Source of the DNA: a virus
Virus record (IMG/VR): IMGVR_UViG_3300001589_000003
Coordinates: 1-64,000 of that record
Length of the DNA: 64,000 bases
Reading direction: 5' to 3' (one strand)
Shown here piece by piece: positions 4,711 through 58,361 of the stretch (position 1 is the stretch's first letter; every line of letters begins with the position of its first letter). A program made the translations under genes and the position numbers. Under the pieces are notes generated by a model. The model saw nothing but the letters and a program-made list of their open reading frames with translations. It did not search any database and was not told the DNA's origin.

Positions 4711-5099
4711 TAGTATACAATTTTCTTATAAAATGGAAAAACAAATATTTCCTCTAGGTTGGAGTTTTTCAAACGATATGCTATAGATACGTCCATACTT
4801 TCACTCTGGGTGATATCTACAGATGTGTCTAGTACTTCTATTCGCGTTTCCCATTTAGAGAGATTATCGAATATGATAAATTCCACTAGTCCTTTTAATA
4901 CTTCATCATTAGGCTCTTCCAATAAATCCTCCAATAATGATACAAACTCAGTTAAGAATATTCTAGTATCACCCCATGACAGAATTAGTTTTATAGAGCT
5001 ATTGATTAGATCAAAACCTGTATCTAAGTCTACACCTCCACTTGCATTTACCTTGATTGGAAATGTTAGTCCTTTGCCTACGTAATTCTCTAATGCCAT
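4710..5099 (-). CDS. Baseplate wedge subunit gp25/GPW-like
   Basis: GKGLTFPI...INSSIKLIL...WETRIEV motif; synteny. Confidence 0.9.
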   Translation of the reverse strand: MALENYVGKGLTFPIKVNASGGVDLDTGFDLINSSIKLILSWGDTRIFLTEFVSLLEDLLEEPNDEVLKGLVEFIIFDNLSKWETRIEVLDTSVDITQSESMDVSIAYRLKNSNLEEIFVFPFYKKIVY

Positions 5100-17843: not shown

Positions 17844-18944
17844 TTACTCTATGATAACTTGTTCCAATGGATCAACATCCATATAAGCAGGGAACCCATT
17901 TCCAGAGAATAGTATACTATCATCTATAATCACCCTAGCATCTCTGTACAAGATGCCAAACCCAGTAGTCAATGATGCATAAGTTTCAATTTTTTGGTTT
18001 GAAACTATTTTATCAGATTCCACCAATAGAGGTTGAGCATTATACTTAATGATTGCTGATGTTCTATCAATAACCATTTGCTGATCTACAGGCATGCTAC
18101 CATGAATATAGTATGCAGAACTTTGAGGTACTGGAGTTTTCAAGTCCAATTTCTTCTCAGTTGTACCAGTATCTCTTAACTTGAATTCATCCAAGAATAA
18201 GGTTTCAATAGCAGCTTCTTCGCCACCAATGATCCCAAAAGGAGTTCTACCGATTCTAGCCATTCTAATCCAAACTCTTAACAAGTCTTTGTAAGACATT
18301 GATCCGGTTGTTTCAGTACCAACTACTGGAGCTGATTCCGAACCATCTGCCTGCTCACCATTAATAAGAGTATCAATCATAAGAGCATCAATGCCTTGAT
18401 TCAACTTAACCCCAAAGTCTTGGAGGAAGATACCAATTACGTTAATTGATACATACTGTACCACTTCGTAAGGTATTTGAATACCACGTCCCATCTTCTT
18501 AACCTTTAAGGTCTTTTGACCGAAACTTATAGTTCCAGTTGGAATGCTTTCACCTTCACCCACATATTTTGGTGTAGCATCCGACATGTTTAAATGGGGA
18601 ATAGTTACTGTAGGATTTGAGATAGTTTGTTCTGCTGCAATGAAGTCAGCCCAGATTGGAGATTTTCTCAATCCCAAACGTAATGCGTCTCTTATAATTT
18701 CAGGGATCAACCATCTAGCTGATTCATCAGGTAAAGTGAAAAGATTCTGGATGGAATCAATACTAGCATTTAGGCCTAAATCATCATATAGAGCCTCCAT
18801 ACTAATTCCCCATTTCGATCTTACAAATTCCCCAATTGATATGTCCATTGGGTTATTAGCATCCTTTCGCATGGATTCACAAGACATTACTACTTCTTGT
18901 AAACTATCCTTGTACTGCGATTTTCTGTATTGTTTAGTGTTCAT
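17844..18944 (-). CDS. Major capsid protein (HK97 fold)
   Basis: RWLIPEIIRDALRLG, YVGEGESIP, KMGRGIQIPYE; position after protease and decoration genes. Confidence 0.9.
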   Translation of the reverse strand: MNTKQYRKSQYKDSLQEVVMSCESMRKDANNPMDISIGEFVRSKWGISMEALYDDLGLNASIDSIQNLFTLPDESARWLIPEIIRDALRLGLRKSPIWADFIAAEQTISNPTVTIPHLNMSDATPKYVGEGESIPTGTISFGQKTLKVKKMGRGIQIPYEVVQYVSINVIGIFLQDFGVKLNQGIDALMIDTLINGEQADGSESAPVVGTETTGSMSYKDLLRVWIRMARIGRTPFGIIGGEEAAIETLFLDEFKLRDTGTTEKKLDLKTPVPQSSAYYIHGSMPVDQQMVIDRTSAIIKYNAQPLLVESDKIVSNQKIETYASLTTGFGILYRDARVIIDDSILFSGNGFPAYMDVDPLEQVIIE

Positions 18945-18957
18945 AATATATTTGTTT

Positions 18958-19386
18958 TTAAAGTAAGCAAACTTTTATAGCATCACCATTTGTCGCAGCT
19001 TGCGTTAAATTATGACCCACTACTAAATCAGGTTCTGCTCCCCCAGCAACATACTCTCTCAAACCTGTTGTTCCGTTGTAAGCACCTAACTTCACGATTC
19101 CTGCATCTAAGCTGTCTGCTGCAGCTTCTGCATTAACTACTGTGTAGCCTCTCATGACTACTGTAACTTCCTCATCCGCAAGTCCATCATGCATGGAGTA
19201 ACCTATTACTAGAGTTCTCTCATCATCAAGGGCTGCAGATTGTACTGTTCCTGTTGCAGTCAAAACTACTGCATCACCTTTATTCACTGTTTGACCTGTT
19301 TCAACTACAAAGCTAATACTTAGCTTATGAGCTTCTGGATCTATATGGAATTTACTGGTGGTTGGGGTTCCTAATGTATTTGGCAT
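18958..19386 (-). CDS. Capsid decoration/cement protein
   Basis: VNKGDAVVLTATGTV...VIGYSMHD...VTVVMRG beta-tulip-like pattern; directly upstream of MCP. Confidence 0.7.
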   Translation of the reverse strand: MPNTLGTPTTSKFHIDPEAHKLSISFVVETGQTVNKGDAVVLTATGTVQSAALDDERTLVIGYSMHDGLADEEVTVVMRGYTVVNAEAAADSLDAGIVKLGAYNGTTGLREYVAGGAEPDLVVGHNLTQAATNGDAIKVCLL

Positions 19387-22880: not shown

Positions 22881-25424
22881 TTATACGGGTTGAACTATTA
22901 TACCTCTTAATTTTATTTTACGAACATGATTGGTTATTGCCTTTGCTAAGATAGCATCATCTGTATAACCATCATCGCTTGAGAGAAGATCATCAGTTTG
23001 GGGTCCTGAACCTTTCCCCATTGCTACAGCTTTGTTTTTCTCATCATATATAAAGGTGTAGGCTTCTTGCACGAATGCTTCATCCTTTATTATAATGTTA
23101 TTCAGCCTGATGTCTTCCTCAAGTTCCCCTATTATTATGGGTCTATTCTTGGAAGTTGTATACCAACCTGGTATCTTCTCTTCTTTCGGCTTTCTTTTCT
23201 TTTTCTCCTTAACTAACTTAGTAGAGTAATAAAGCTTACTGTAATTCATCTCCTGTAGTTTAGAAGTTACTGCCAAACCTATATCATTAGATTCTGGAGC
23301 TAGAATTGCTCTATGATATATGTTACCTAGTCCTGCCATTAGTATTGCAAGCTCATTTGGGGGTAGTTTACCCTTATAAGAACCATACTCTTCTCCTTTT
23401 TCATCCATTATGGATAGAGCCGAGTAATCTCGTGATCTACCAGTTGAAACGTCACCCCCTATTCCAAACCTTCTACCATTCTCTGGTAACTTATAAATCT
23501 GTAAATTATCCCCCATTGAGGTTTTTACAGATTTTAGAACTTTATCAAATTGCCTATGTTTAGTTAGGTCTAATGGTATGTAATCATTTAAGCTTTCTTC
23601 TATAGCTCTTATATCCAATAGATCAAATACTGAAGACCCTGACGTTAAAAAATCGCCGTCAATTTCTTGAGCAGTACGTCTTGGTCCCAATGATGCTGAC
23701 ATCTCATTATACCAATTTGGGAACTTCTTGGTAGTGTCATTATCCTTACCACGTTCTGGGTGCATCTCCCATTTAAGTCGTAATGGAGTAAACTCTCCAC
23801 CGGAGCAAGCTTCTACCCATTTTTTGTGAAAGAAGTTCCCGATCCCATAGGGGGTGTTATGGTTAATAAAATGCGTTTTTGTTATATAAGATTCATCTTT
23901 TTCTACGCAAATGTCATAGATGGTGTCCTTAAATTTTCTCAGTACTACCAACTTACTTATTTTAACTCCTTTACATCTACTACCATTTAGCACTCTAGTT
24001 ACATAACTTGGGTGAATCCCTAAACTTTCTGCTATATCTTTTCTTCTTATCCCAGTATAGTGTTGTTCCCATATTTTACCAATGGTCATGATATCGGGAA
24101 ACCCTTTACCCGTATTGTTATTTAGAGTTAAGCCCCTAGAGTGTTTAACCGCTCTCTGGGCATTTTCTTTTCTAGTTATAATTTGAAGGTTATTAACATG
24201 ATCTATGTTCCTGGTATCATCCTTGTGATCTACTATATGACCCTTTGGTATCTCTCCTATAAAATGGGTAGCTACTAATATTGATACTTTAAATTTTCTT
24301 GATTTTTGCTTACTCCAAAGAGATACTCTATGATATCCCTCTGAACTAACCATTAATCTCTTCTCCTTTCCAGAACCTCTATAATACACCTTACCATGGT
24401 TAGAGATAAGATAATTAGGGTAGCCTTTTATTTTTTCCTTTCTCTCCTTCTTAGGGGGTTTATTTAGGGGAGCAACTTTTAAATTATCAACTCCACTATC
24501 AAATGTAATAGTGTATAAATCCTTTTTGATTACCTGTTTTAAAGTTTTCCAGCCTTTAGTGGTTAATACCCTATGAGCTGGAGTTGCTTTTAGCCTCTGC
24601 CCCATGTCACTCTCCACTTCCCAGGTTTTAAGTTTTCCTTTGTTTACAGCTCCTAATACTCTTCTCCACTTACCTGTATGTGATAATACCTCTAGTCCTA
24701 AGGCTTCCACATTATGTTTTCCAAAGTTCTTTGGGGCTATCATATCAACCCTAAAATTTCCACTTTTCCCAACTATTTCTGTATCACCTGTTATACAAGA
24801 ATTAAGTATAGCTCTACCCCCAGTTGATAGTGTTGGAAATGCTGCAGCCCATATTTGATCTGCCCACCTAATGATCGCAGCTTCATCAATAACCAATAAC
24901 GATAAAGCCTCAGATCGACCAGCTTCTTCTGTAGTTGGTATAGAGGTAATGAGAGAACCATTAGCGAACTCGATTTCGGAGGCAGTACCCAAGTCCTTAG
25001 TTCTCCCATTGATGATTTGTACTTGAAGGTGGTCAGGTAAGTTCCTATACATGAACTTAATCTTTCTCAATACCTTCTTAGCAACGGTGTCTTTTATGCT
25101 TATGATATTTATGTTCTTGTTTGAATGGAACATTGCATACCATAAGCAAAATAATGATATCAACTCTGTCAGCCCTGCCTGGCGGAATTTGAGTATAATA
25201 TTAAACCTTTCTCTAATAAAGGAATAAAGTACAGCCCTTTGATATGGATATAATCCGAATTGGACTTTACCATAGACTGGGTTAATAACGTGTATAAAGT
25301 TGGAGAAAAAGAATGGGTCGGCAGCAGCTCTGGTTAAATCCTCGAATTCATCCGAAGACAAAGGTTTGTTTACAACCTTAGAAGCTCTACCCTTGGAGCC
25401 TATGTTTTCATCTGTATTATTCAT
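22881..25424 (-). CDS. terL: Terminase large subunit containing an intein
   Basis: LYPYQ, KFRQAGLT (Walker A), LLVIDEAA (Walker B), nuclease GGDVSTG...ESNDIG...DDAILA. Confidence 0.95.
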   Translation of the reverse strand: MNNTDENIGSKGRASKVVNKPLSSDEFEDLTRAAADPFFFSNFIHVINPVYGKVQFGLYPYQRAVLYSFIRERFNIILKFRQAGLTELISLFCLWYAMFHSNKNINIISIKDTVAKKVLRKIKFMYRNLPDHLQVQIINGRTKDLGTASEIEFANGSLITSIPTTEEAGRSEALSLLVIDEAAIIRWADQIWAAAFPTLSTGGRAILNSCITGDTEIVGKSGNFRVDMIAPKNFGKHNVEALGLEVLSHTGKWRRVLGAVNKGKLKTWEVESDMGQRLKATPAHRVLTTKGWKTLKQVIKKDLYTITFDSGVDNLKVAPLNKPPKKERKEKIKGYPNYLISNHGKVYYRGSGKEKRLMVSSEGYHRVSLWSKQKSRKFKVSILVATHFIGEIPKGHIVDHKDDTRNIDHVNNLQIITRKENAQRAVKHSRGLTLNNNTGKGFPDIMTIGKIWEQHYTGIRRKDIAESLGIHPSYVTRVLNGSRCKGVKISKLVVLRKFKDTIYDICVEKDESYITKTHFINHNTPYGIGNFFHKKWVEACSGGEFTPLRLKWEMHPERGKDNDTTKKFPNWYNEMSASLGPRRTAQEIDGDFLTSGSSVFDLLDIRAIEESLNDYIPLDLTKHRQFDKVLKSVKTSMGDNLQIYKLPENGRRFGIGGDVSTGRSRDYSALSIMDEKGEEYGSYKGKLPPNELAILMAGLGNIYHRAILAPESNDIGLAVTSKLQEMNYSKLYYSTKLVKEKKKRKPKEEKIPGWYTTSKNRPIIIGELEEDIRLNNIIIKDEAFVQEAYTFIYDEKNKAVAMGKGSGPQTDDLLSSDDGYTDDAILAKAITNHVRKIKLRGIIVQPV
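23856..24797 (-). mobile_element. Intein (314 aa) with NUMOD4-HNH homing endonuclease
   Basis: S|CITGDTEI ... ATPAHRV (block B) ... IYDICVEKDESYI...NHN|T; internal IKGYPNYLISNHGKV and VDHKDDTRNIDHVNNL; removal restores GGRAILNSTPYG. Confidence 0.92.
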
Positions 25425-27015: not shown

Positions 27016-28011
27016 TTAAAAGTTTAGTTTATCTATTATTGATTTGAACCATACCCCTATTTCGTAAGGGGGTGATTTTGTTACTGTTGTTCTAGCTTTG
27101 TTAATACAGTACTCTGACCAATCCTCATCATACCATAGTTTAAAAGAGTCTGGAACTCCTTGTATTCTAGCCATCTCTCTAGGTGATAACATGTGACCCC
27201 AATGATTAAACTGTCTGTTAGCTTTCCTTACTGTAAATGGGTATGCGTTGGCAAAATTACGATATACCCCTGGTTGGTTCTTCATACGCTCCCTATTTAC
27301 AGGCCAACGATTTTCCGCCTTGAATTCCGTTAACCAGAGCTTTCTAGCTTTCTTAACAGATACCCTAGAATCATCGCCATAATATAGGTTAATCATTTTC
27401 TTGTCATCTTCAGTAACATGACATATACTAGGATTATATTCCTCTAATCCTTTTATCAATTCACCTGACGTTTTGTAGATGAAGTCGGTCTTTGGTAGTT
27501 TAAATTTTTTTATTGTATTCTTGGGTAAATCCTTATGAACCCCCACTATTACTAATCTAACCCTAGTTTTTTGAGAGTTACCCCAAGCTGATACTGACTC
27601 CTTAAAAGTAACTGTTCTGTAGTTTAAGAACTCATCCAGTAGGGTTGGGTAGTGCTCAAGCATCTTGGGTAAATTCTCCATCATAAAGAACTGAGGTTGG
27701 TAGTAGTTGATAGAATCCACAAATGCTCTTAGACTAGCGTTCTCGCTCGGATCACTCATCTTCTTAGCCCTAGAGTAGGCTAGTACTGATGAATGCCCAC
27801 AGTCTGGAGCTCCAATAATGATATCTACCCCATCCTTCCTATACCTGACATCTGTTGTTTCATCATAGGATACGTTAAAATTTAGGTTCCATTGTTTTTG
27901 GTGGGTGGTGTGAAACACAGTTCTTGGTTCTATATTACCAACAAGTTGGTTTCTAAATGGGTGAAGTATTACACCGTTACCTCCACATACTCCTAATGTT
28001 TTCAAGCTCAT
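27016..28011 (-). CDS. C5 cytosine DNA methyltransferase (divergent)
   Basis: Motif IV GAPDCG, VI MENL, VIII QKTRVRLVIVG, IX LSPREMARIQGVPDSF; motif I degenerate (LGVCGGNG). Confidence 0.85.
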   Translation of the reverse strand: MSLKTLGVCGGNGVILHPFRNQLVGNIEPRTVFHTTHQKQWNLNFNVSYDETTDVRYRKDGVDIIIGAPDCGHSSVLAYSRAKKMSDPSENASLRAFVDSINYYQPQFFMMENLPKMLEHYPTLLDEFLNYRTVTFKESVSAWGNSQKTRVRLVIVGVHKDLPKNTIKKFKLPKTDFIYKTSGELIKGLEEYNPSICHVTEDDKKMINLYYGDDSRVSVKKARKLWLTEFKAENRWPVNRERMKNQPGVYRNFANAYPFTVRKANRQFNHWGHMLSPREMARIQGVPDSFKLWYDEDWSEYCINKARTTVTKSPPYEIGVWFKSIIDKLNF

Positions 28012-28098: not shown

Positions 28099-28407
28099 AT
28101 GGAAATCAAAGAATATATAAAAAAGGCAAAAAAATATCAGAAGACCCCCAAACGGAAAAAGCTTGATAGACTAACTTATTTAACTTTAGGATATGCGGGT
28201 GAAGGAGGAGAGGTAGCAGATGAGATTAAGAAGGCATGGAGAAATAAGTCGGGTAGGATAACTAAAGCACGTAGAAACAAAATATTAATAGAAATGGGTG
28301 ATGTCTTGAATATTACTTTTAGAATGATGAAGGAACTCGACTGTACCATGGAAGAACTTCTGGATATACACTTAGAAAAACTTAAAAATAAAGCTAAACC
28401 ATTTTAA
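28099..28407 (+). CDS. MazG-like nucleotide pyrophosphohydrolase
   Basis: LGYAGEGGEVADEIKK...EMGDVL. Confidence 0.85.
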   Translation: MEIKEYIKKAKKYQKTPKRKKLDRLTYLTLGYAGEGGEVADEIKKAWRNKSGRITKARRNKILIEMGDVLNITFRMMKELDCTMEELLDIHLEKLKNKAKPF

Positions 28408-28408
28408 C

Positions 28409-28591
28409 ATGAATGCAAAGAATATTATGTCAATCGCAGGGTACTGGGTTACGTTCTACATTATACACATAGATATAGTAGAACTAGTAGGAAAGGACAC
28501 CAAATACTATTGGATAATGATTTTAAAATTAGTAATATTATCACTTATGGCCTTCCTTAGAGGGTTCAACAATAAAACTTTACAAATATGA
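28409..28591 (+). CDS. Small membrane protein
   Basis: Two hydrophobic segments; coupled to next ORF. Confidence 0.55.
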   Translation: MNAKNIMSIAGYWVTFYIIHIDIVELVGKDTKYYWIMILKLVILSLMAFLRGFNNKTLQI

Positions 28592-29175
28592 AAAAACTAT
28601 GGTGCCAATTTATACTTTGGCTTTTTAACAAGAACCTAATGCTCATCAATGGAGAAGTTGATGAACGGGGTAAGGTTACAGTACATGTGGGTATTGATTC
28701 CAAATACGAACACCCACTAGGTAAGATTCAGGTGGATAGACTCTTTCACATACCAGATTGGAGATACAAAGCAGATTGGATCAATACGGAGGGCGAATAT
28801 ATGGTCAGGCTACAAGATAACAATAAACCCAATTTGTTTATGGAGCATATAGCAACTCGAGATGATCTAACCTCTCATTTTGGAAAAAACTTTAACCCAT
28901 CTTCTGCAAAGTTGATTGCTGGCTGGTTATTTAAACATGTTCAACTATCTACAGGAGTAGCAGTGGATGTTATCGTTCGACCTAAGGGTATGGAGAAACA
29001 ATTGTTCTTAGAAAATGTGAAGAGTGGAAAAATGAAAGCTGTTGAGTTTACTAGACCCATAGATTACATGAGAGTGGTGGATGTTAATATAGAAGCTTAC
29101 TCTGATGTTGCTGCTCTTAATGATGCAGAAAAGTCAGAACTGAAAGCCTTTTTACATAAAGCAGATTTATCATGA
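28588..29175 (+). CDS. Hypothetical protein
   Basis: ORF track; coupled overlaps. Confidence 0.7.
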   Translation: MKKLWCQFILWLFNKNLMLINGEVDERGKVTVHVGIDSKYEHPLGKIQVDRLFHIPDWRYKADWINTEGEYMVRLQDNNKPNLFMEHIATRDDLTSHFGKNFNPSSAKLIAGWLFKHVQLSTGVAVDVIVRPKGMEKQLFLENVKSGKMKAVEFTRPIDYMRVVDVNIEAYSDVAALNDAEKSELKAFLHKADLS

Positions 29176-29330
29176 GCCATATGAACAGACCCTTATCTAA
29201 ATTGGATGATACCAAAGTACCCAAGAAAGTATATCACTCATGGGCATCTGGGGTTGATAATGATAAGGGTAGGAAAGTAAGACATCCTTATACTGAAGTG
29301 GGGTTCAAATTTGACAAAGACAAGACATGA
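29172..29330 (+). CDS. Hypothetical protein (52 aa)
   Basis: Manual translation MSHMNRPLSKLDDTK...; ATGA overlaps at both ends. Confidence 0.55.
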   Translation: MSHMNRPLSKLDDTKVPKKVYHSWASGVDNDKGRKVRHPYTEVGFKFDKDKT

Positions 29331-29647
29331 AAGATTCAGAGAAATTAAAACTCTTAGCTAACTGGTTTGATTTAAGAGATAAGGAACAACCTATATTTAA
29401 AGGTAGTGGTACAGAAGTTCAAACAGACCTTAGAAGAATAGCTAGAAGCTTAGAAATAGATGAAAGCATAACCCAAGTTCCTGTAAATACTAGGCAAGTG
29501 GTAGATGTGGATGTTATCACTGGGTTTAATGCAAAAACCCTACGTGAAAATCTACTGAGAGCTTATGATGATGGTTTTGAGATAGTATCTAACTTAGCTG
29601 GTGATGCTAGACTAGGTTATTCAATTATTGTACATAAATATAAATAA
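29327..29647 (+). CDS. Hypothetical protein
   Basis: ORF track. Confidence 0.65.
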   Translation: MKDSEKLKLLANWFDLRDKEQPIFKGSGTEVQTDLRRIARSLEIDESITQVPVNTRQVVDVDVITGFNAKTLRENLLRAYDDGFEIVSNLAGDARLGYSIIVHKYK

Positions 29648-29648
29648 C

Positions 29649-30176
29649 ATGCAAAAAGAAAGAATACCCAAAGAATTAAAAGGAGCACTGATCTGGTTAA
29701 GTATGTCAATAATACTTGGGTTCGCAGTCATATCCTTCAGTGAGAAGATAAATGGGCCGAATGCCTTTTTTAATAATTGGTGGCCTGTATTAGTAGGACT
29801 ATCAATTATGGTACTAGGTATAACTAATGTACATGCTTGGCGAGAGTCCAAGAGAATTCGTAAAGGAGCCCATATAAAGGTTCAGTTCCTTAGGGCTATA
29901 GTGATATCATTAATTTCATTAGGGCTAACTATGTATGCACCTGCTCCAATTATCAAATGGCAATTCTTTATAAGTATCTGTTCTTTTCAGATCGGTATAT
30001 TTATGTTAGCCTTTGATTACTTATTCAACTATTACAAAGGCAATGAATGGAGCTATTTTGGAACAGAATCAGTTCTGGATGTTTTCAATGCTAAAATACC
30101 CATATGGTTAAACATCTTTTTGGAGGTATCATTTCTAATTGGAACTATATGGGCTTTTGATAAGTATATTGTATAA
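29649..30176 (+). CDS. Multi-pass membrane protein
   Basis: About 5 TM segments; start probably MQKERI at 29649 rather than 29628. Confidence 0.65.
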   Translation: MQKERIPKELKGALIWLSMSIILGFAVISFSEKINGPNAFFNNWWPVLVGLSIMVLGITNVHAWRESKRIRKGAHIKVQFLRAIVISLISLGLTMYAPAPIIKWQFFISICSFQIGIFMLAFDYLFNYYKGNEWSYFGTESVLDVFNAKIPIWLNIFLEVSFLIGTIWAFDKYIV

Positions 30177-30179
30177 TAA

Positions 30180-30255
30180 GGCAGAGGATAGCATAGCTGA
30201 CAAATGCGCTACCCATACAGGGTAGAGATCGTGGGGTAAGAGCTCACCTTCTGCC
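30180..30255 (+). tRNA. Degenerate tRNA-like element (Val-TAC-like, probably pseudo or repurposed)
   Basis: Cloverleaf: GGCAGAGG/CTTCTGCC, D-stem GCAT/ATGC, anticodon stem CTACC/GGTAG with loop CATACAG, variable AGATC, T-stem GTGGG/CTCAC; lacks U33, TTC and CCA. Confidence 0.55.
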
Positions 30256-30416
30256 TAGAAATTTTAGAACACTCGATGGATATGTAAACCGGTGGTCGGG
30301 TCTGAACGAACGGTATAGGGGTTAATCAGAGTGAGGCATCTGTCGGGTATATGATTAAATGTATTCGTCTCAATGATTAATCATCAGGCCATTTTTTAAC
30401 TTTAAATCTAATAAAC

Positions 30417-30587
30417 ATGAGAATTTTAAATGCATTCTTTTATATATTCTGCATCCTGTGGGTAGTTGCTACTCTATCTGTAGTGATTTGGATGATCACT
30501 AATTATAATCATTACGGATGGATTCTTTTAATATCACTAGCAGTTGCTGGGTATATGGTGCATAGAGTACATAACCCCAGGCATTGA
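30417..30587 (+). CDS. Small 2-TM membrane protein (56 aa)
   Basis: Manual translation MRILNAFFYIFCILWVVATL...; stop overlaps next start. Confidence 0.55.
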   Translation: MRILNAFFYIFCILWVVATLSVVIWMITNYNHYGWILLISLAVAGYMVHRVHNPRH

Positions 30588-30901
30588 TGGTAGAATTTAA
30601 GAACGGTACTAGAATAGAATCACCCAACCTAAGTGGACAAATAGCCATAACCGAAGAGATGGTAAAATATAATGCTATGGGTTGGAAGGCTGAAGACTTG
30701 TTTAAAGCTGACCTTATCGAGAACACCAATATCGACCGTGACAATCCGCAAGGTTGGTATGGTTGGAAAGTGAGCTTGGGAGTATACTACTTCATCTGGA
30801 ACTCACAGCCTGCAAATCCCACTAAAAAAGAAATTGCCATGATCCGAACTATGCTTCAAAGAGATGGCTATGAAGTTGAACCTTTATCACTTTTATTTTA
30901 A
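30584..30901 (+). CDS. Hypothetical protein
   Basis: ORF track. Confidence 0.6.
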   Translation: MMVEFKNGTRIESPNLSGQIAITEEMVKYNAMGWKAEDLFKADLIENTNIDRDNPQGWYGWKVSLGVYYFIWNSQPANPTKKEIAMIRTMLQRDGYEVEPLSLLF

Positions 30902-30960
30902 AAACCATAAGAACACTTAAATCATTTAACACAGACACAATAGATAAGTTAGTCAATGCG

Positions 30961-31278
30961 ATGAACACTATATTAAGTCAACCAGGTAAATTTAATATTC
31001 ACTTACTAATGAAGGGCTTAGAAGCACATGTATACCTATCCACCTCTTTACAGAGTATGGGTCTAGTGATACAAGTGAGACCAACTAGGTATGAAGTCAA
31101 TAGGGATGCTATAAAATACTACACCCCCAACCCAAGTACCCTTCGGATGACCAAGGGACATCCCTTAGCTATCTTAATACTTAAGCAGTATAACCTTCAC
31201 AAGGATAGGTCTAATCTTAACTTTGCCTTAACTAAACTCAAAAAGAAATATGGACGATTTAACGAAAAAAGTACATAA
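30961..31278 (+). CDS. Hypothetical protein
   Basis: ORF track. Confidence 0.55.
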   Translation: MNTILSQPGKFNIHLLMKGLEAHVYLSTSLQSMGLVIQVRPTRYEVNRDAIKYYTPNPSTLRMTKGHPLAILILKQYNLHKDRSNLNFALTKLKKKYGRFNEKST

Positions 31279-31477
31279 GATTCTTGTGAAAAAATACGGT
31301 CAAGAATTTGATAAAGGGTGGTTTGAAAACGGAACTTTATTTAAAAACATAATTAAAGCAACCGAAGAAGCATTAACTATACCCGATGTTAACAAATCTG
31401 TTTGTGTACAGACTGGATTAGAATGTGGTTTTCCTTGCCATAGTGAATGCCCTTTATATGATAAGCTGAAACCTTAA
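31250..31477 (+). CDS. Hypothetical protein with Cys-rich C-terminus
   Basis: CVQTGLECGFPCHSECP. Confidence 0.55.
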   Translation: MDDLTKKVHKILVKKYGQEFDKGWFENGTLFKNIIKATEEALTIPDVNKSVCVQTGLECGFPCHSECPLYDKLKP

Positions 31478-31644
31478 TGAATATGAAAAATACATTTGAT
31501 TACACAGCCAAGAGCAAAGAAGGAAATGACATCAATGGACAAGTGTTAGCTGAATCACACGCTGATGCTTATGACTACTTATGTGAACAAGAGTACACAG
31601 AAATTAATGTTAAACGACATTTTGAAGTGGACGAGCTTCGTTAG
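31477..31644 (+). CDS. Hypothetical protein (55 aa)
   Basis: Manual translation MNMKNTFDYTAKSKEGNDINGQVLAES...; TAATG coupling. Confidence 0.55.
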   Translation: MNMKNTFDYTAKSKEGNDINGQVLAESHADAYDYLCEQEYTEINVKRHFEVDELR

Positions 31645-31656
31645 TAGGCTTATTAC

Positions 31657-31728
31657 CTACAACGCTCATGAATATAAGGCGTGTGGGCTGGTTTTGCGTT
31701 GTAAATGCCTTTATATTTAATGTTATCA
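31657..31728 (+). other. attC-like imperfect palindrome
   Basis: CTACAAC...AATATAAGGC...GCCTTTATATT...GTTATCA, with one extra unpaired base in the inner stem. Confidence 0.4.
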
Positions 31729-31765
31729 CACGTTTATTATGGTAGGAAACTTTTAAGAAATAAAT

Positions 31766-32161
31766 ATGAATAAAGTAGAGAAAGCCCTAAAGGTTGTAGA
31801 TTACTCATCTTACAACCTAATTGCCCATTACCATGATAAGGAGTTTAGTCATACTATACACATCATGTTTAAGAATGGTTCAGGCTATTGTAGAGTTTAT
31901 TGGTTCGATGATGACCCAGTCAATATCTACCTAGAATACCTAACCGTTAGTAAGGCTTTTCAGAAGCAGGGTAAGGGAGCACATCTCCAGGTTTTAAGGG
32001 AATCCATAGGTAGAGCAATTGGAGCAACCAAATCTAATCTGTGGGTAATGGAAGGTACGTGGATGCAAGAATGGTACAGAAGGAGAGGCTACGTTGATAC
32101 TGTACCACATGAGAAAGAGCCTGGTAGTATTTGGATGGAAAAGAACATTAGAACTAGATAG
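31766..32161 (+). CDS. GNAT-family acetyltransferase
   Basis: LTVSKAFQKQGKGAHL (motif A), WYRRRGY. Confidence 0.8.
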   Translation: MNKVEKALKVVDYSSYNLIAHYHDKEFSHTIHIMFKNGSGYCRVYWFDDDPVNIYLEYLTVSKAFQKQGKGAHLQVLRESIGRAIGATKSNLWVMEGTWMQEWYRRRGYVDTVPHEKEPGSIWMEKNIRTR

Positions 32162-32166
32162 AGTTA

Positions 32167-32609
32167 TGAGAAACTATATGAAGCCCCAGAAGAAGAGAAA
32201 CCGGTGGGACCCTTATAACCCCAAAGTATCACTTAGAGTCAAGAACGCTTATAGGAAGGTAGGGTTCACTATGACGAGGCTGGAAGATACATGCCCTACT
32301 TGCATGGGTGATAGGGAACTATGTAGAGCCAAGAAAGTCAAGGTTGAGGTTAATAACTTTATGGTTATATATTGTTCTAAAAGCTACTACATACTAGTAT
32401 ACAAAAAGATGTCAACCCTTGGCAAGTACCTAGAACGAATTGTTCTGGATTATCCGAAACCCTTAGGAGTTTGCCTGAAAATTCCCGTACTAAAAAAGGC
32501 ACACGGTGTGAATAGAGGATATAAAAATGAGGAAAGGAATAGGGGATCAATCCCTATCCAATCCCTCATGCATCAATCAATAATCTATCCTATAATTGAT
32601 TTAAGATAA
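32167..32609 (+). CDS. Hypothetical protein (CxxC)
   Basis: ORF track 32094..32609; ATG start at 32167 more plausible; 3' end overlaps convergent gene so extent is uncertain. Confidence 0.4.
32538..32559 (-). terminator. Terminator hairpin at convergence point
   Basis: ATAGGG(G)A-TCAA-TCCCTAT with pyrimidine tail on minus strand. Confidence 0.5.
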
Positions 32610-32995
32610 TCCAAAAGATTCTTGCAATCTTTGAGATCAATCTCATTCCTTGAAGATGAGAAATTCTCTATCTTAAAATCTTGGATTTTCCAATTCTCTT
32701 TATAGAATTCCATAAATGATTCAATTGAGATCAATCTCTCTTCATCTGATCTATCTTTTCCAAGGATATCATTGATATATCCTCTTAATCCTCTTCTGAT
32801 CTTCGATCTCTTTTTCTTCTTATCCTCTGATCCTAATGCATCTAATCCCTTATATATGGATTTAGATGATCCCTTGGCATCTTCCTTATCCAATAGAGAT
32901 TTCTTTCCTTTGGATAGATCAATCTTGATATTAGATGCATTCAATGCATCATTAGATTGAGATTCTTTCTTTGCATCCTTTAATTGATTTTTCAT
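32585..32995 (-). CDS. Early hypothetical protein lacking Thr and Val
   Basis: 136 aa; behind duplicated promoter-like block; basic KKKKRSKIRR helix. Confidence 0.8.
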   Translation of the reverse strand: MKNQLKDAKKESQSNDALNASNIKIDLSKGKKSLLDKEDAKGSSKSIYKGLDALGSEDKKKKRSKIRRGLRGYINDILGKDRSDEERLISIESFMEFYKENWKIQDFKIENFSSSRNEIDLKDCKNLLDYLKSIIG

Positions 32996-33273
32996 GATAT
33001 TAGATTTAATTGATTAATAAATTATTGATTTTCAAATATTATAAATGATTTTGGATTATCCTATATAAATGATTAAAAAGATTAATCCCTCTATAAAGAT
33101 AGATATTCCCATGATGAATTTAAATTTCATGATCTTAATTTCTTTTCTTGATAATCCGATAGATTCCTGAATGATGATTTGATTTTTCATGATCTTGATT
33201 TATTTAATTGATTATTGATTTTCAAATATCTAAATAAATTCTGGATTATCCTATATAAATGATTAAAAAGATT
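32985..33273. repeat. Tandem duplicated promoter/leader block (period about 190 nt)
   Basis: TGGATTATCCTATATAAATGATTAAAAAGATT at 33052-33083 and 33242-33273; ATTATTGATTTTCAAATAT at 33021 and 33211; TGATTTTTCATGAT at 32985 and 33180. Confidence 0.9.
33056..33190 (-). CDS. 44-aa membrane peptide (unlisted)
   Basis: Manual translation MKNQIIIQESIGLSRKEIKIMKFKFIMGISIFIEGLIFLIIYIG; same upstream block and MKNQ start as 32585..32995. Confidence 0.55.
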   Translation of the reverse strand: MKNQIIIQESIGLSRKEIKIMKFKFIMGISIFIEGLIFLIIYIG

Positions 33274-33472
33274 CTCGGTAATTTCTCTCCTAACTCATGG
33301 ACAATTCCGGTCGGCTGGTCTCATACACAAAGAAGGCCTGTAGCGCAGTACTTGGCCTCAGACCCTTTTATTCTTTGTAGTATTGGAATTATATGGAAGT
33401 GAATAAGATATTCGTATTTCGTGATCTAATCCACTAGAGATATGAGTGGGTATGCCTATTTCTAACCGAAGA

Positions 33473-42102: not shown

Positions 42103-42143
42103 GATTTCTAGTGATTTAATTCTATTAATGATTAAATGATATT

Positions 42144-52849: not shown

Positions 52850-53212
52850 CTACTGGGTTTGGCACCCTTTACTGTAGCCTGCATGTCTACCATTTTTATG
52901 AGCATCCTCAAAATTTTCACTCTGAGTAAGCCATCTAAGATTAGTGTATAAGTTATTATGTTTATTAAAATCTATGTGATCTACATGTAATCCTGGTTTA
53001 TACCCATCTACAAAAGCCATTGCTACTAGCCTATGTAGGTACATAGTTTTTCTACTTTTATAATTTTCATCAGTTATTAGGGTTACTAATATGTATCTCT
53101 GTTTTCTATTAGATGTTTTTCTAACTTTGCCAGTTCTAATATTTCTAACTTTACCGTGGTTAGAGACTTGGTACTTACTAAACCCTTGTATATCTTTCCA
53201 AATTTCCTTCAT
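52850..53212 (-). CDS. Free-standing NUMOD4-HNH homing endonuclease
   Basis: MKEIWKDIQGFSKYQVSNHGKVR; HRLVAMAF; VDHIDFNKHNNLYTNLRW. Confidence 0.9.
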   Translation of the reverse strand: MKEIWKDIQGFSKYQVSNHGKVRNIRTGKVRKTSNRKQRYILVTLITDENYKSRKTMYLHRLVAMAFVDGYKPGLHVDHIDFNKHNNLYTNLRWLTQSENFEDAHKNGRHAGYSKGCQTQ

Positions 53213-53232
53213 ATAGTACAATAGCATATTGT

Positions 53233-56917: not shown

Positions 56918-57804
56918 TTTAAAGTTTTAAATGGTCTAATAAATGAATTGCCCATTAGTTTTGTCATATTATACTTTCTGGCAAGTCTGTTGAATTTTTC
57001 AACATTAAGTTTCGGGTTTTTACCCCCTATGTATTCAGTTTTGAGTTGATCTTTAAATTTGGAGTAGAAGTATCTCAAGTCAATCAACACTCGGCATATA
57101 TCTATCAACTCTAGTAACTTATCTCTCTTTATTATAGTATGATCATCATTTGATTTCAAGAAGTTCGCTAAACTCCCATATTTCTCAAGTAATTGTGCTG
57201 CCTTAGTAGGACCTATACCTGGGTAACCTGGTATGTTATCAGAGTTGTCTCCTATGAGGGTTAACCAATCAACTGTGTTATGAGCATGGTAACCTTTCTC
57301 TTCAAAACAATTTTCTTCGGTTATGATGGTTTTCTTTTTCCTCTTGTCATTGAAGATACTAACGTTAGCATCTATGAGTTGGTCAAAGTCTTTATCATTA
57401 CTGATTATGATGACATTGGTAAAACCGTTCTTACCTGCTAGTTTGGTTAACTTGTAAATCATATCATCAGCTTCACCTTTGCTGTTGAATATCTGCTTTA
57501 CCCCTAGATGCTTAAACATCTTCTGTACAATGCTCTTTTGTTTTAAGAAGTTCTTGTAGTCAGTTAAAGATTTATGGGCTCTCTCCTTATAATTGGGTAA
57601 TACCTTTACCCTCTCCTTAGAGTGTCCCCCATCCCATACCAGTATCATCTCGTCTGGGTTGAATCTACTGATGTAACTTCTGACCATGGTTACTAACCCA
57701 TATATTATTGACACTACAAAATTCTTATAGGATAGCCTCGAGTAAGCATGATAAGCTTTCCAAGCTGAATTGTTACTGTCTACTATTACTAATGTCTTAC
57801 CCAT
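56914..57804 (-). CDS. 5'-3' exonuclease / flap endonuclease
   Basis: EADD, SNDKDFDQL, GDNSDNIPGYPGIGPTKA. Confidence 0.93.
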   Translation of the reverse strand: MGKTLVIVDSNNSAWKAYHAYSRLSYKNFVVSIIYGLVTMVRSYISRFNPDEMILVWDGGHSKERVKVLPNYKERAHKSLTDYKNFLKQKSIVQKMFKHLGVKQIFNSKGEADDMIYKLTKLAGKNGFTNVIIISNDKDFDQLIDANVSIFNDKRKKKTIITEENCFEEKGYHAHNTVDWLTLIGDNSDNIPGYPGIGPTKAAQLLEKYGSLANFLKSNDDHTIIKRDKLLELIDICRVLIDLRYFYSKFKDQLKTEYIGGKNPKLNVEKFNRLARKYNMTKLMGNSFIRPFKTLK

Positions 57805-58361
57805 CTATAACCTCCTGTCTTTTTTCTACGTCCTGCTATACAACTACCTATATTTTGTCTTGAACAATTGTTATCTTCAGCTCCTTCTCTTGCTGTTGGG
57901 TAGTATTTTCTATTACCTTCCCCATCTACCCTGTAAAGTCCTTTAGCATTGGGTGAGTTCTCCCCTCTCAACAATTTGTGAGCTTCTGATAACTTCTTCC
58001 TGTGTGATAAAGAGAAATTAGCACCCTTCATGGTCAATGACATGTTCTTTGACCTGTCTCTGTAAGTAGTGTTCACTAAGTCAAACCCAAGTTCTACCAT
58101 CCAATCAATCCAAGTATTTTCAGCTTTAAGCTTTTTGGACTCAGGTACAATATCCAATAGTTCAATCGTTGGCTCCTCACCCAAGGAGTTCAACCATACT
58201 ACTCTCTTATTAGTTTTTCTACCTTTACCACCCTTAAATGACTTAGCTTCTTTCATATGCCTACTTAACCTATGTTTTAAAGATTCCCCAGTTTGCCCAA
58301 CATACCTAGGTAAAAAGGTTATTGGGTCTTTCAATACATATATTCTAACAATATCTTCCAT
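57789..58361 (-). CDS. Free-standing GIY-YIG homing endonuclease with NUMOD3/NUMOD1-like C-terminus
   Basis: RIYVLKDP...RYVGQT...RLSRH; HRKKLSEAH; IGSCIAGRRKKTGGYRW. Confidence 0.9.
   Translation of the reverse strand: MEDIVRIYVLKDPITFLPRYVGQTGESLKHRLSRHMKEAKSFKGGKGRKTNKRVVWLNSLGEEPTIELLDIVPESKKLKAENTWIDWMVELGFDLVNTTYRDRSKNMSLTMKGANFSLSHRKKLSEAHKLLRGENSPNAKGLYRVDGEGNRKYYPTAREGAEDNNCSRQNIGSCIAGRRKKTGGYRWVRH

Follow-up and report, generated by a model that had tools for sequence, protein, structure and literature searches.

An early-type transcription unit purged of AC and GT dinucleotides in an uncultured contractile-tailed phage and its relatives

The window analysed here is a stretch of 64,000 nucleotides (nt), positions 1 to 64,000 of the IMG/VR virus record IMGVR_UViG_3300001589_000003, from the 76,278-base pair (bp) genome of an uncultured contractile-tailed phage that encodes a tail sheath, a tape measure, a portal and a major head protein. 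At issue is a 770-bp island (32509..33278, assigned to neither strand), bounded by GT at 32508-32509 and GT at 33278-33279, within which the dinucleotide AC and its complement GT do not occur. The island coincides with one complete transcription unit, starting in the DNA ahead of the promoter and ending shortly after the terminator, arranged on the minus strand as promoter module P1, a 44-amino acid (aa) open reading frame (ORF), promoter module P2, a 136-aa ORF and a terminator-like hairpin. On one side it adjoins the end of the early array on the minus strand, and on the other a highly variable cassette on the plus strand that converges on it.

The two promoter modules are copies of a 79-nt direct repeat, with P1 (33195..33273, minus strand) 84% identical to the reference copy P2 (33005..33083, minus strand), which overlaps the end of the 44-aa ORF. 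P1 has its -7 box, xATATTTG, at 33223-33230, followed by an A-rich leader and ATG AAA AAT CAA, and it also contains the relic of a 3' end from a 44-aa-type ORF; the -7 box of P2 is at 33033-33040. The 44-aa ORF (33056..33190, minus strand) encodes a C-terminal hydrophobic helix and, judged from its sequence, the product looks like a tail-anchored membrane protein. The 136-aa ORF (32585..32995, minus strand), which like the 44-aa ORF starts with MKNQ, encodes a basic protein (pI 9.4) with a helical C-terminal half. The terminator-like hairpin with its T-rich tail is at 32543..32565 (minus strand) and the island stops about 30 nt beyond it; its other end is some 50 bp upstream of the -7 box of P1. 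Both promoter modules carry the ATATTTGA -7 box seen in other early promoters and lack AC/GT, as host-type promoters free of the avoided step, and the motif ATATTTGAW is common to the island promoters and the minus-strand early promoters at 42142, 44630, 45668 and 50582. An initial reading made from the sequence alone (hereafter the sequence-only reading) had proposed a first-entering or first-expressed segment, and the shared -7 box bears out that an early-type transcription unit is covered.

Across the whole genome the island is the longest gap between AC/GT sites, six times the length of any other, with boundaries as first described and runners-up of only 120, 111, 85 and 77 bp, and no further dinucleotide pair has a gap >353 bp, CG excepted, which is depleted genome-wide. 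Shuffled versions of the island contained 75.2±6.7 AC/GT (minimum, 52; 5000 shuffles), in line with the several dozen originally expected from base composition, against none observed. The 224 non-coding bases of the island likewise hold none, where shuffles gave 20.1 (P(0) = 0; 5000 shuffles). With the protein held fixed and the codons redrawn from the phage genome's own usage, synonymous resampling returned 25.5±3.8 AC/GT for the 136-aa gene (minimum, 12; 5000 resamplings), and for the 44-aa gene it returned 6.0±1.7; neither gene contains any. Neither codon- nor composition-preserving randomization thus yielded an AC/GT-free island. As had been noticed from the letters, the two products contain no Thr and no Val and all Ser codons avoid AC/GT, as do all Asn, Asp, Tyr, Gly and Arg codons in use. 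Because the purge extends to synonymous and non-coding positions, the constraint sits on the DNA and is not the by-product of an odd protein, which upholds the earlier proposal of DNA-level selection.

Outside the island the genome is unexceptional in this respect. A windowed dinucleotide check, which the sequence-only reading had suggested, gave observed/expected AC/GT of 0.7-1.1 in all 1-kb windows outside the island, and some 7,900 AC/GT sites occur elsewhere in the genome. A depletion gradient around the island was considered and rejected, as the 1-kb windows show none. The next-longest AC/GT-free runs (50-120 bp) are A+T-rich promoters and were rejected as parts of the same system, with equally long promoter runs present in the island-less relatives G002 (119 bp) and gut phage MT121964 (120 bp). 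Avoidance of palindromes in general does not account for the island: observed/expected ratios of 4-bp palindromes are 0.7-1.07 over the genome, and neither GTAC nor ACGT stands out. GATC had been called abundant in support of the same point, and while the point stands, the 11 GATC in the island are close to the number predicted from neighbour frequencies (~10) and are not enriched in their own right.

The same cassette is found purged in relatives. G001 (IMG/VR 3300022407_004352), the closest full-length relative retrieved, has core proteins ~50% identical to those of this phage and a head protein 71% identical, and at the syntenic place it carries 784 bp with 0 AC/GT, built in the same way, of two promoter modules, an ORF of 59 aa whose product has a hydrophobic tail, a 138-aa homologue of the 136-aa protein, and a hairpin with a T run. 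In L005, the hairpin and T run (4895-4932) come shortly before the island end at 4943, and the 59-aa ORF resembles the 44-aa ORF in position and build. In a metagenome contig (L007), the island measures 1147 bp, includes 3 AC/GT and contains three ORFs, all starting with MENQK: an orphan ORF of 110 aa, one of 47 aa that by eye is clearly like the 44-aa ORF, and a 138-aa homologue. A fourth island (L008) extends over at least 629 bp with 1 AC/GT. Other homologues are ordinary in AC/GT and in Thr/Val content, namely L009-L011 and the distant syntenic homologue in G002/L002; MT121964 has no AC/GT-free island, and its proteins gave only marginal matches to the 136-aa protein and no clear homologue. 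A 218-bp AC/GT-free run in G001 was set aside as unrelated to the island, being a low-complexity GAA/GAG repeat in the gene of a protein (18904-19329) that contains a run of ~70 glutamates. The sequence-only reading would have taken homologous loci with normal AC/GT and Thr/Val as evidence against selection; many such loci exist, but alongside them stands a discrete set of diverged and equally purged homologues, by which the case for selection is strengthened, not refuted.

The purged copies differ mutually at 31-48% of aligned nucleotides, and the same number of random substitutions applied to an AC/GT-free start produced 37.8±5 AC/GT (minimum, 22; 3000 simulations). Divergence on this scale without regain of AC/GT means that the purge is maintained by selection: it is an ongoing purifying selection at the level of the DNA, kept over deep divergence. 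The pattern of replacement speaks to the mutational alternative, in which recurrent hypermutation by a context-specific deaminase would, in a unit transcribed heavily, turn the AC of either strand into AT with no selection involved. AT is indeed the commonest replacement and is over-represented in the islands (142 in this one, 100 expected), but only 24-33% of the AC/GT positions of normal homologues appear as AT in purged copies, the rest being AA, GA, TC, CT, AG and others, and in the proteins Thr is mostly replaced by Ser and Lys and Val about equally by Ile and Leu. G+C content is 0.26-0.31 in purged and normal genes alike, so that the excess of the transition product and the loss of G+C left by hypermutation are both missing, and the ORFs are intact with the family motif conserved. 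Unselected hypermutation is therefore extremely unlikely.

Comparison among the islands also settles which step is avoided. The sequence-only reading had taken the target to be RC (purine before cytosine), the half-site of McrBC-type modification-dependent nucleases, from the scarcity of GC as well as AC. Its counts are correct for this window, where 7 GC remain (14 expected): Ala or Cys codons account for 6, and 32975-33278 contains none. Pooled over the four islands, however, AC+GT number 4 against 308 expected and GC 27 against 53, with GC near expectation in L005 (11 of 16) and L008 (9 of 11). Ala makes up 3.8% of residues in purged proteins and 5.1% in normal homologues, and up to 21 Ala (GCN) codons occur in one purged protein. 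AC and GC are thus not both avoided, as they would be for a McrBC-type nuclease; the target is AC/GT rather than RC, the scarcity of GC is a local feature of this window, and the earlier identification of the island target is not supported.

Avoidance of McrBC-type half-sites on a first-entering DNA segment nevertheless has points in its favour. AC is absent from both strands and the remaining GC in this island are mostly codon-forced, the phage has a thymidylate synthase (TS)-like enzyme with a cytosine-type Asp (described below), and the pre-early DNA of T5 is the classical precedent for site-free DNA that enters first. McrBC also recognizes a two-nucleotide element of purine plus modified cytosine, and a modified cytosine would be plausible here through the cytosine-type TS homologue. 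Beyond the GC retained in purged relatives, by which any such reader would have to be specific for A before C, McrBC would still be able to cleave at the many sites that flank the island. The large terminase has T4 gp17 as its nearest solved relative (E = 2.6e-16), which is the prototype of headful packaging, and this suggests permuted ends and argues weakly against a fixed first-entering end. Further, the island is internal in all contigs that contain it, and its transcription is directed away from the neighbouring early genes. This explanation is accordingly held to be very improbable.

Whether the target is in DNA or in RNA can be approached through the two strands. In the gene of all purged copies, AC and GT each occur 0-2 times against 15-25 expected, and with both equally purged a single specificity for duplex DNA suffices, where an RNA-level cause would need two. 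Upstream DNA is informative as well. The 62 bp upstream of the first -7 box in L005 are purged (shuffle mean, 7.5; P(0) = 1e-4), as are the 77 bp in L007 (shuffle mean, 5.4; P(0) = 8e-4), while the upstream stretch in this window, a relic copy of already-purged sequence, says less by itself. An explanation at the RNA level would have the transcripts dodge an endoribonuclease, either of the MazF/ChpBK type (ACA, ACY or UAC) or a collateral RNase of the Cas13 type with a dinucleotide preference, and survive while others are destroyed. It would accommodate the coincidence of the island with a transcription unit, and most MazF-family motifs contain AC. Messages without ACA escape MazF, and the likeness extends to a whole coding unit without a very short motif that would stay functional while other molecules are destroyed. 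It differs in that AC and GU are purged equally on one strand and that promoter DNA which is not transcribed is purged too, both of which place the target in duplex DNA and make the RNA-level explanation very unlikely.

A further alternative at the DNA level is a replication zone, either a stretch without primase sites of the T7 or T4 type (GTC, GTT/GCT) or an R-loop origin. The phage encodes a DnaG-type primase and a DnaB-type helicase, and the primase sites of T7 and T4 begin with GT or GY. Against this, 770 bp is less than an Okazaki fragment and the benefit is not evident, apart from the duplicated promoter the island showed neither iterons nor other features of an origin, and the trait tracks a protein-coding cassette of varying gene content in an all-or-none manner. 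A role of this kind has hardly any probability.

The all-or-none behaviour was apparent once the family was searched more widely. A word-index and profile search of 1.84 billion representatives returned at least 238 profile matches to the 136-aa family at E ≤ 0.001, and sequences were analysed for 166 members. The combined number of Thr and Val was 0 in 25 of these, 1-2 in 4, 3-6 in 10 and at least 7 in 127, and the purge is thus bimodal across the family. As Met and Trp codons end in G, a Met or Trp before Phe, Tyr, Cys or Trp forces a GT, and such dipeptides number 0 in the 25 purged proteins (9.9 expected) compared with 26 in normal members (31.7 expected), so that a protein sequence by itself is enough to verify the purged state. 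A tree built for 109 members (FastTree) calls for at least 9 changes of state, fewer than the 19-24 obtained with shuffled labels, indicating a trait that is inherited yet repeatedly switched.

Taken together, the explanation favoured here, at a probability of roughly 0.45 and thus somewhat short of even odds, is that some factor, most likely of the host, acts on infecting DNA at AC/GT steps and that the early cassette has been purged so as to stay readable. The island is a self-contained early cassette, driven by host-type promoters and encoding a small, probably membrane-anchored protein and the basic 136-aa protein, whose duplex DNA is kept AC/GT-free from promoter to terminator by purifying selection. 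The factor would cut, block or bind infecting phage DNA at AC/GT, and a single site would be enough to stop the cassette from being read, since the all-or-none pattern calls for an agent with a strong effect at each site. The products of the cassette would be needed before the factor is neutralized, which would explain why the cassette alone is purged. The match of the island boundaries to promoter and terminator is counted in favour of such a unit-level explanation. The factor is most likely encoded by the host and different between hosts, as a factor outside the phage fits a trait that has switched repeatedly and does not correlate with the modification genes of the phage (see below). One candidate would be a type IV-like nuclease, or a silencing binder, that reads a modified C after A, which is conceivable because the phage has a dCMP-type TS homologue; such reading would be akin to, though distinct from, that of RmC half-sites by McrBC. 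We infer the site-specific factor, its host origin, the cytosine modification, the first expression of the cassette and its counteracting role.

The T5 and T7 phages offer the nearest comparison for the host-factor explanation. The pre-early first-step-transfer region of T5 lacks EcoRI sites and the leading end of T7 carries Ocr. As in those phages, a DNA-attacking system would find its target throughout the genome except in a short early-acting segment, which presumably encodes a counter-measure. The cassette described here differs in that a two-letter step rather than a 6-bp site is avoided, that the avoidance is absolute over a whole unit and that the proteins themselves have been reshaped.

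Several observations weigh against an AC/GT factor. No factor with plain AC/GT specificity, and no described system that reads AC/GT, is known to us, and this analysis did not identify one. A nuclease acting at the ~7,900 other AC/GT sites would still destroy the remaining genome, and the nuclease version would work only with a block that can be reversed, a kinetic race or DNA that enters in stages. The inferred DNA modification is deduced from one residue in one enzyme. The family tree is weakly resolved and shared composition could pull purged members together, making the number of switches a rough one. The 136-aa protein has no Pfam and no PHROG match, its best VIA-align result (Z 5.6) is to generic helical repeats and bundles only, and being basic it is unlike a DNA mimic. 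Other searches with this protein were similarly uninformative as to function: Foldseek against the PDB and viral structures returned nothing at E ≤ 0.001, and Atlas yielded only a resemblance to sigma-70 region 2 at a TM of 0.43. In a phage collection, neither the DNA of the island region nor the 136-aa protein had a match. Viral contigs scanned with single proteins (a 274-aa protein, the 136-aa protein and the portal) gave no match, nor did a subgroup scan, and a genome-contig scan found no homologue.

The candidate modification genes of the phage bear on a second DNA-level explanation, in which the mark to be escaped is the phage's own. A divergent C5-methylase homologue (27016-28011, minus strand; PF00145, E = 1.7e-17, profile positions 38-298) heads the late operon. 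Its TIGR00675 score of 42.6 bits is below the cut-off of 100.65, and its motifs include VCGGNG, PDC (not PPC) with the catalytic Cys, ENL, QKTRVR and SPREMARIQGVPDSF, a good motif IX. A TS-fold protein (genome 64252-65010, minus strand) has its catalytic Cys in PC(T) and, when aligned to the T4 and Lactobacillus casei TS, an Asp at the position of TS Asn177, reading RSCDVIRHFRDD where TS has RSVDVFLGLPFN, as in dCMP-specific enzymes. In T4 dCMP hydroxymethylase, as in mutants of TS, an Asp in place of Asn177 confers specificity for cytosine, and dCMP is therefore indicated by the sequence as the substrate. A modified cytosine in the phage DNA is plausible on these grounds. The genome also has a dNMP-kinase-like gene and MazG-like pyrophosphatases. 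A second gene overlaps the TS-fold gene (the two together at genome 64252-65885, L001:4252-5885, minus strand) and had no Pfam, NCBIfam or PDB sequence match.

In this second explanation, the phage would modify AC/GT after replication and the unit would be kept free of the mark because the mark hinders the unmodified host RNA polymerase or a regulator binding the GGAT..ATCC repeats. No other unit of the infecting genome could then be read immediately. It has the merit that survival of the rest of the genome poses no problem, it suits an island composed of promoter and transcribed DNA, and the methylase homologue, the TS-like gene, the kinase-like gene and the pyrophosphatases are all at hand. 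Two-letter contexts, the resolution at which the island is purged, are established for phage DNA-modifying enzymes: DpdA modifies at GA (PMC7544227), including that of phage iggy (PMC10484667), phage C5-methyltransferases working with TET act at GpC (PMC8256090), and thymidine dioxygenases act at NTC or NTG (PMC13229309). None of these uses AC/GT, and a modification-free gene island is not described for such phages in these papers. The DpdA/TGT and TET/JBP genes were looked for in the genome and none was found.

The distribution of the candidate genes is less favourable to an own mark. Relatives whose cassette is normal (G002/L002 and MT121964) have C5-methylase and TS-like genes too, so these genes do not predict the purge. 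The bodies of the other early genes have normal AC/GT, although those genes must likewise be read from infecting DNA. CpG has an observed/expected ratio of 0.30 in this genome and 0.42-0.6 in relatives, a depletion that, if the methylase is active, would possibly fit a CG-directed enzyme, through loss by deamination, better than an AC-directed one. An ApC-specific enzyme is not known. Escape from the phage's own mark is therefore regarded as possible but doubtful. Two more concrete forms are likewise rather unlikely. In one, the virion DNA of purged lineages would carry a bulky mark at every AC/GT step that the unmodified host RNA polymerase can neither bind nor read through, until the products of the mark-free cassette open the rest; the cassette would then, if this is true, be an immediate-early switch gated by modification and written into the sequence itself. 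In the other, a host silencer or nuclease yet to be discovered would have a true two-letter specificity for modified C after A.

Two further genes near the TS-fold gene were considered. The dCMP deaminase (genome 63815-64234, L001:3815-4234, minus strand) was rejected as an editor of DNA, since it is closely similar to genuine dCMP deaminases (2hvv, E = 7e-30; cyanophage 4p9c, E = 1.9e-24) and is an ordinary nucleotide-pool enzyme. Searches with a 238-aa ORF (genome 65857-66573, L001:5857-6573, minus strand) gave nothing usable. Both genes occur in the two purged genomes (this phage and G001) and were undetected in G002 and MT121964, though with four genomes only the co-occurrence may be phylogeny.

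The remaining gene content is that of a phage with a T4-style set of replication and recombination genes, including, besides the primase and helicase noted above, a UvsW-like helicase, a PolA-type polymerase, RecA, an SbcCD-like nuclease and a 5'-3' exonuclease. A Shine-Dalgarno-like motif precedes 7 of the 108 ORFs, leaders are A-rich and early promoters have a TAnnTTTG-type -7 box, a combination that points to a Bacteroidota host. Mobile elements are frequent: an HNH endonuclease interrupts the large terminase (22881-25424, minus strand), a LAGLIDADG intein lies within the UvsW-like helicase (genome 67060-69789, L001:7060-9789, minus strand), and free-standing HNH/NUMOD4 and I-HmuI-like genes are at 52850-53227 and 57789-58361 (minus strand). 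The plus-strand cassette that converges on the island (28099-32609) is nearly without homologues in the three relatives compared (one weak match in G001) and includes a small MazG-like protein (28099-28407) and a GNAT acetyltransferase (31766-32161); with this content, the cassette is a possible hot spot for accessory or anti-defence genes.

Two non-coding features accompany the cassette. An inverted repeat is found ~15-25 bp upstream of the -7 box in each island promoter, reading GGATAATCC in this phage (33243-33251 in P1 and 33053-33061 in P2, minus strand) and in L007 (176-188, 703-715) and CGGAT..ATCCG in L005 (4209-4224, 4433-4448), with a further copy at 32447-32455, just outside the island; by its form, the repeat looks like the operator of a regulator that binds as a dimer. 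Ahead of the A+T-rich cassette lies a spacer rich in G+C and dense in AC/GT, in this window (33279-33472) as well as in L005 (3982-4160) and L002 (3800-3930). The spacers do not fold better than shuffled sequences (z = -1.46, -0.4 and -0.4) and an Rfam search over 31.5-35 kb found no match; an insulating terminator or a packaging signal is a possible role.

A dinucleotide purge across an entire unit is a very strong footprint of selection, one that excludes two amino acids from the encoded proteins and survives ~40% divergence. The implied activity would read DNA at the resolution of AC/GT, outside the catalogued restriction, type IV and modification systems, and could be either a host defence or a mark of the phage. 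The absence of Thr and Val, together with the absence of Met or Trp before Phe, Tyr, Cys or Trp, provides a sequence signature for such phages and for the counter-measure genes that they would need first, and the bimodal family supplies natural matched pairs for association mapping of the responsible gene.

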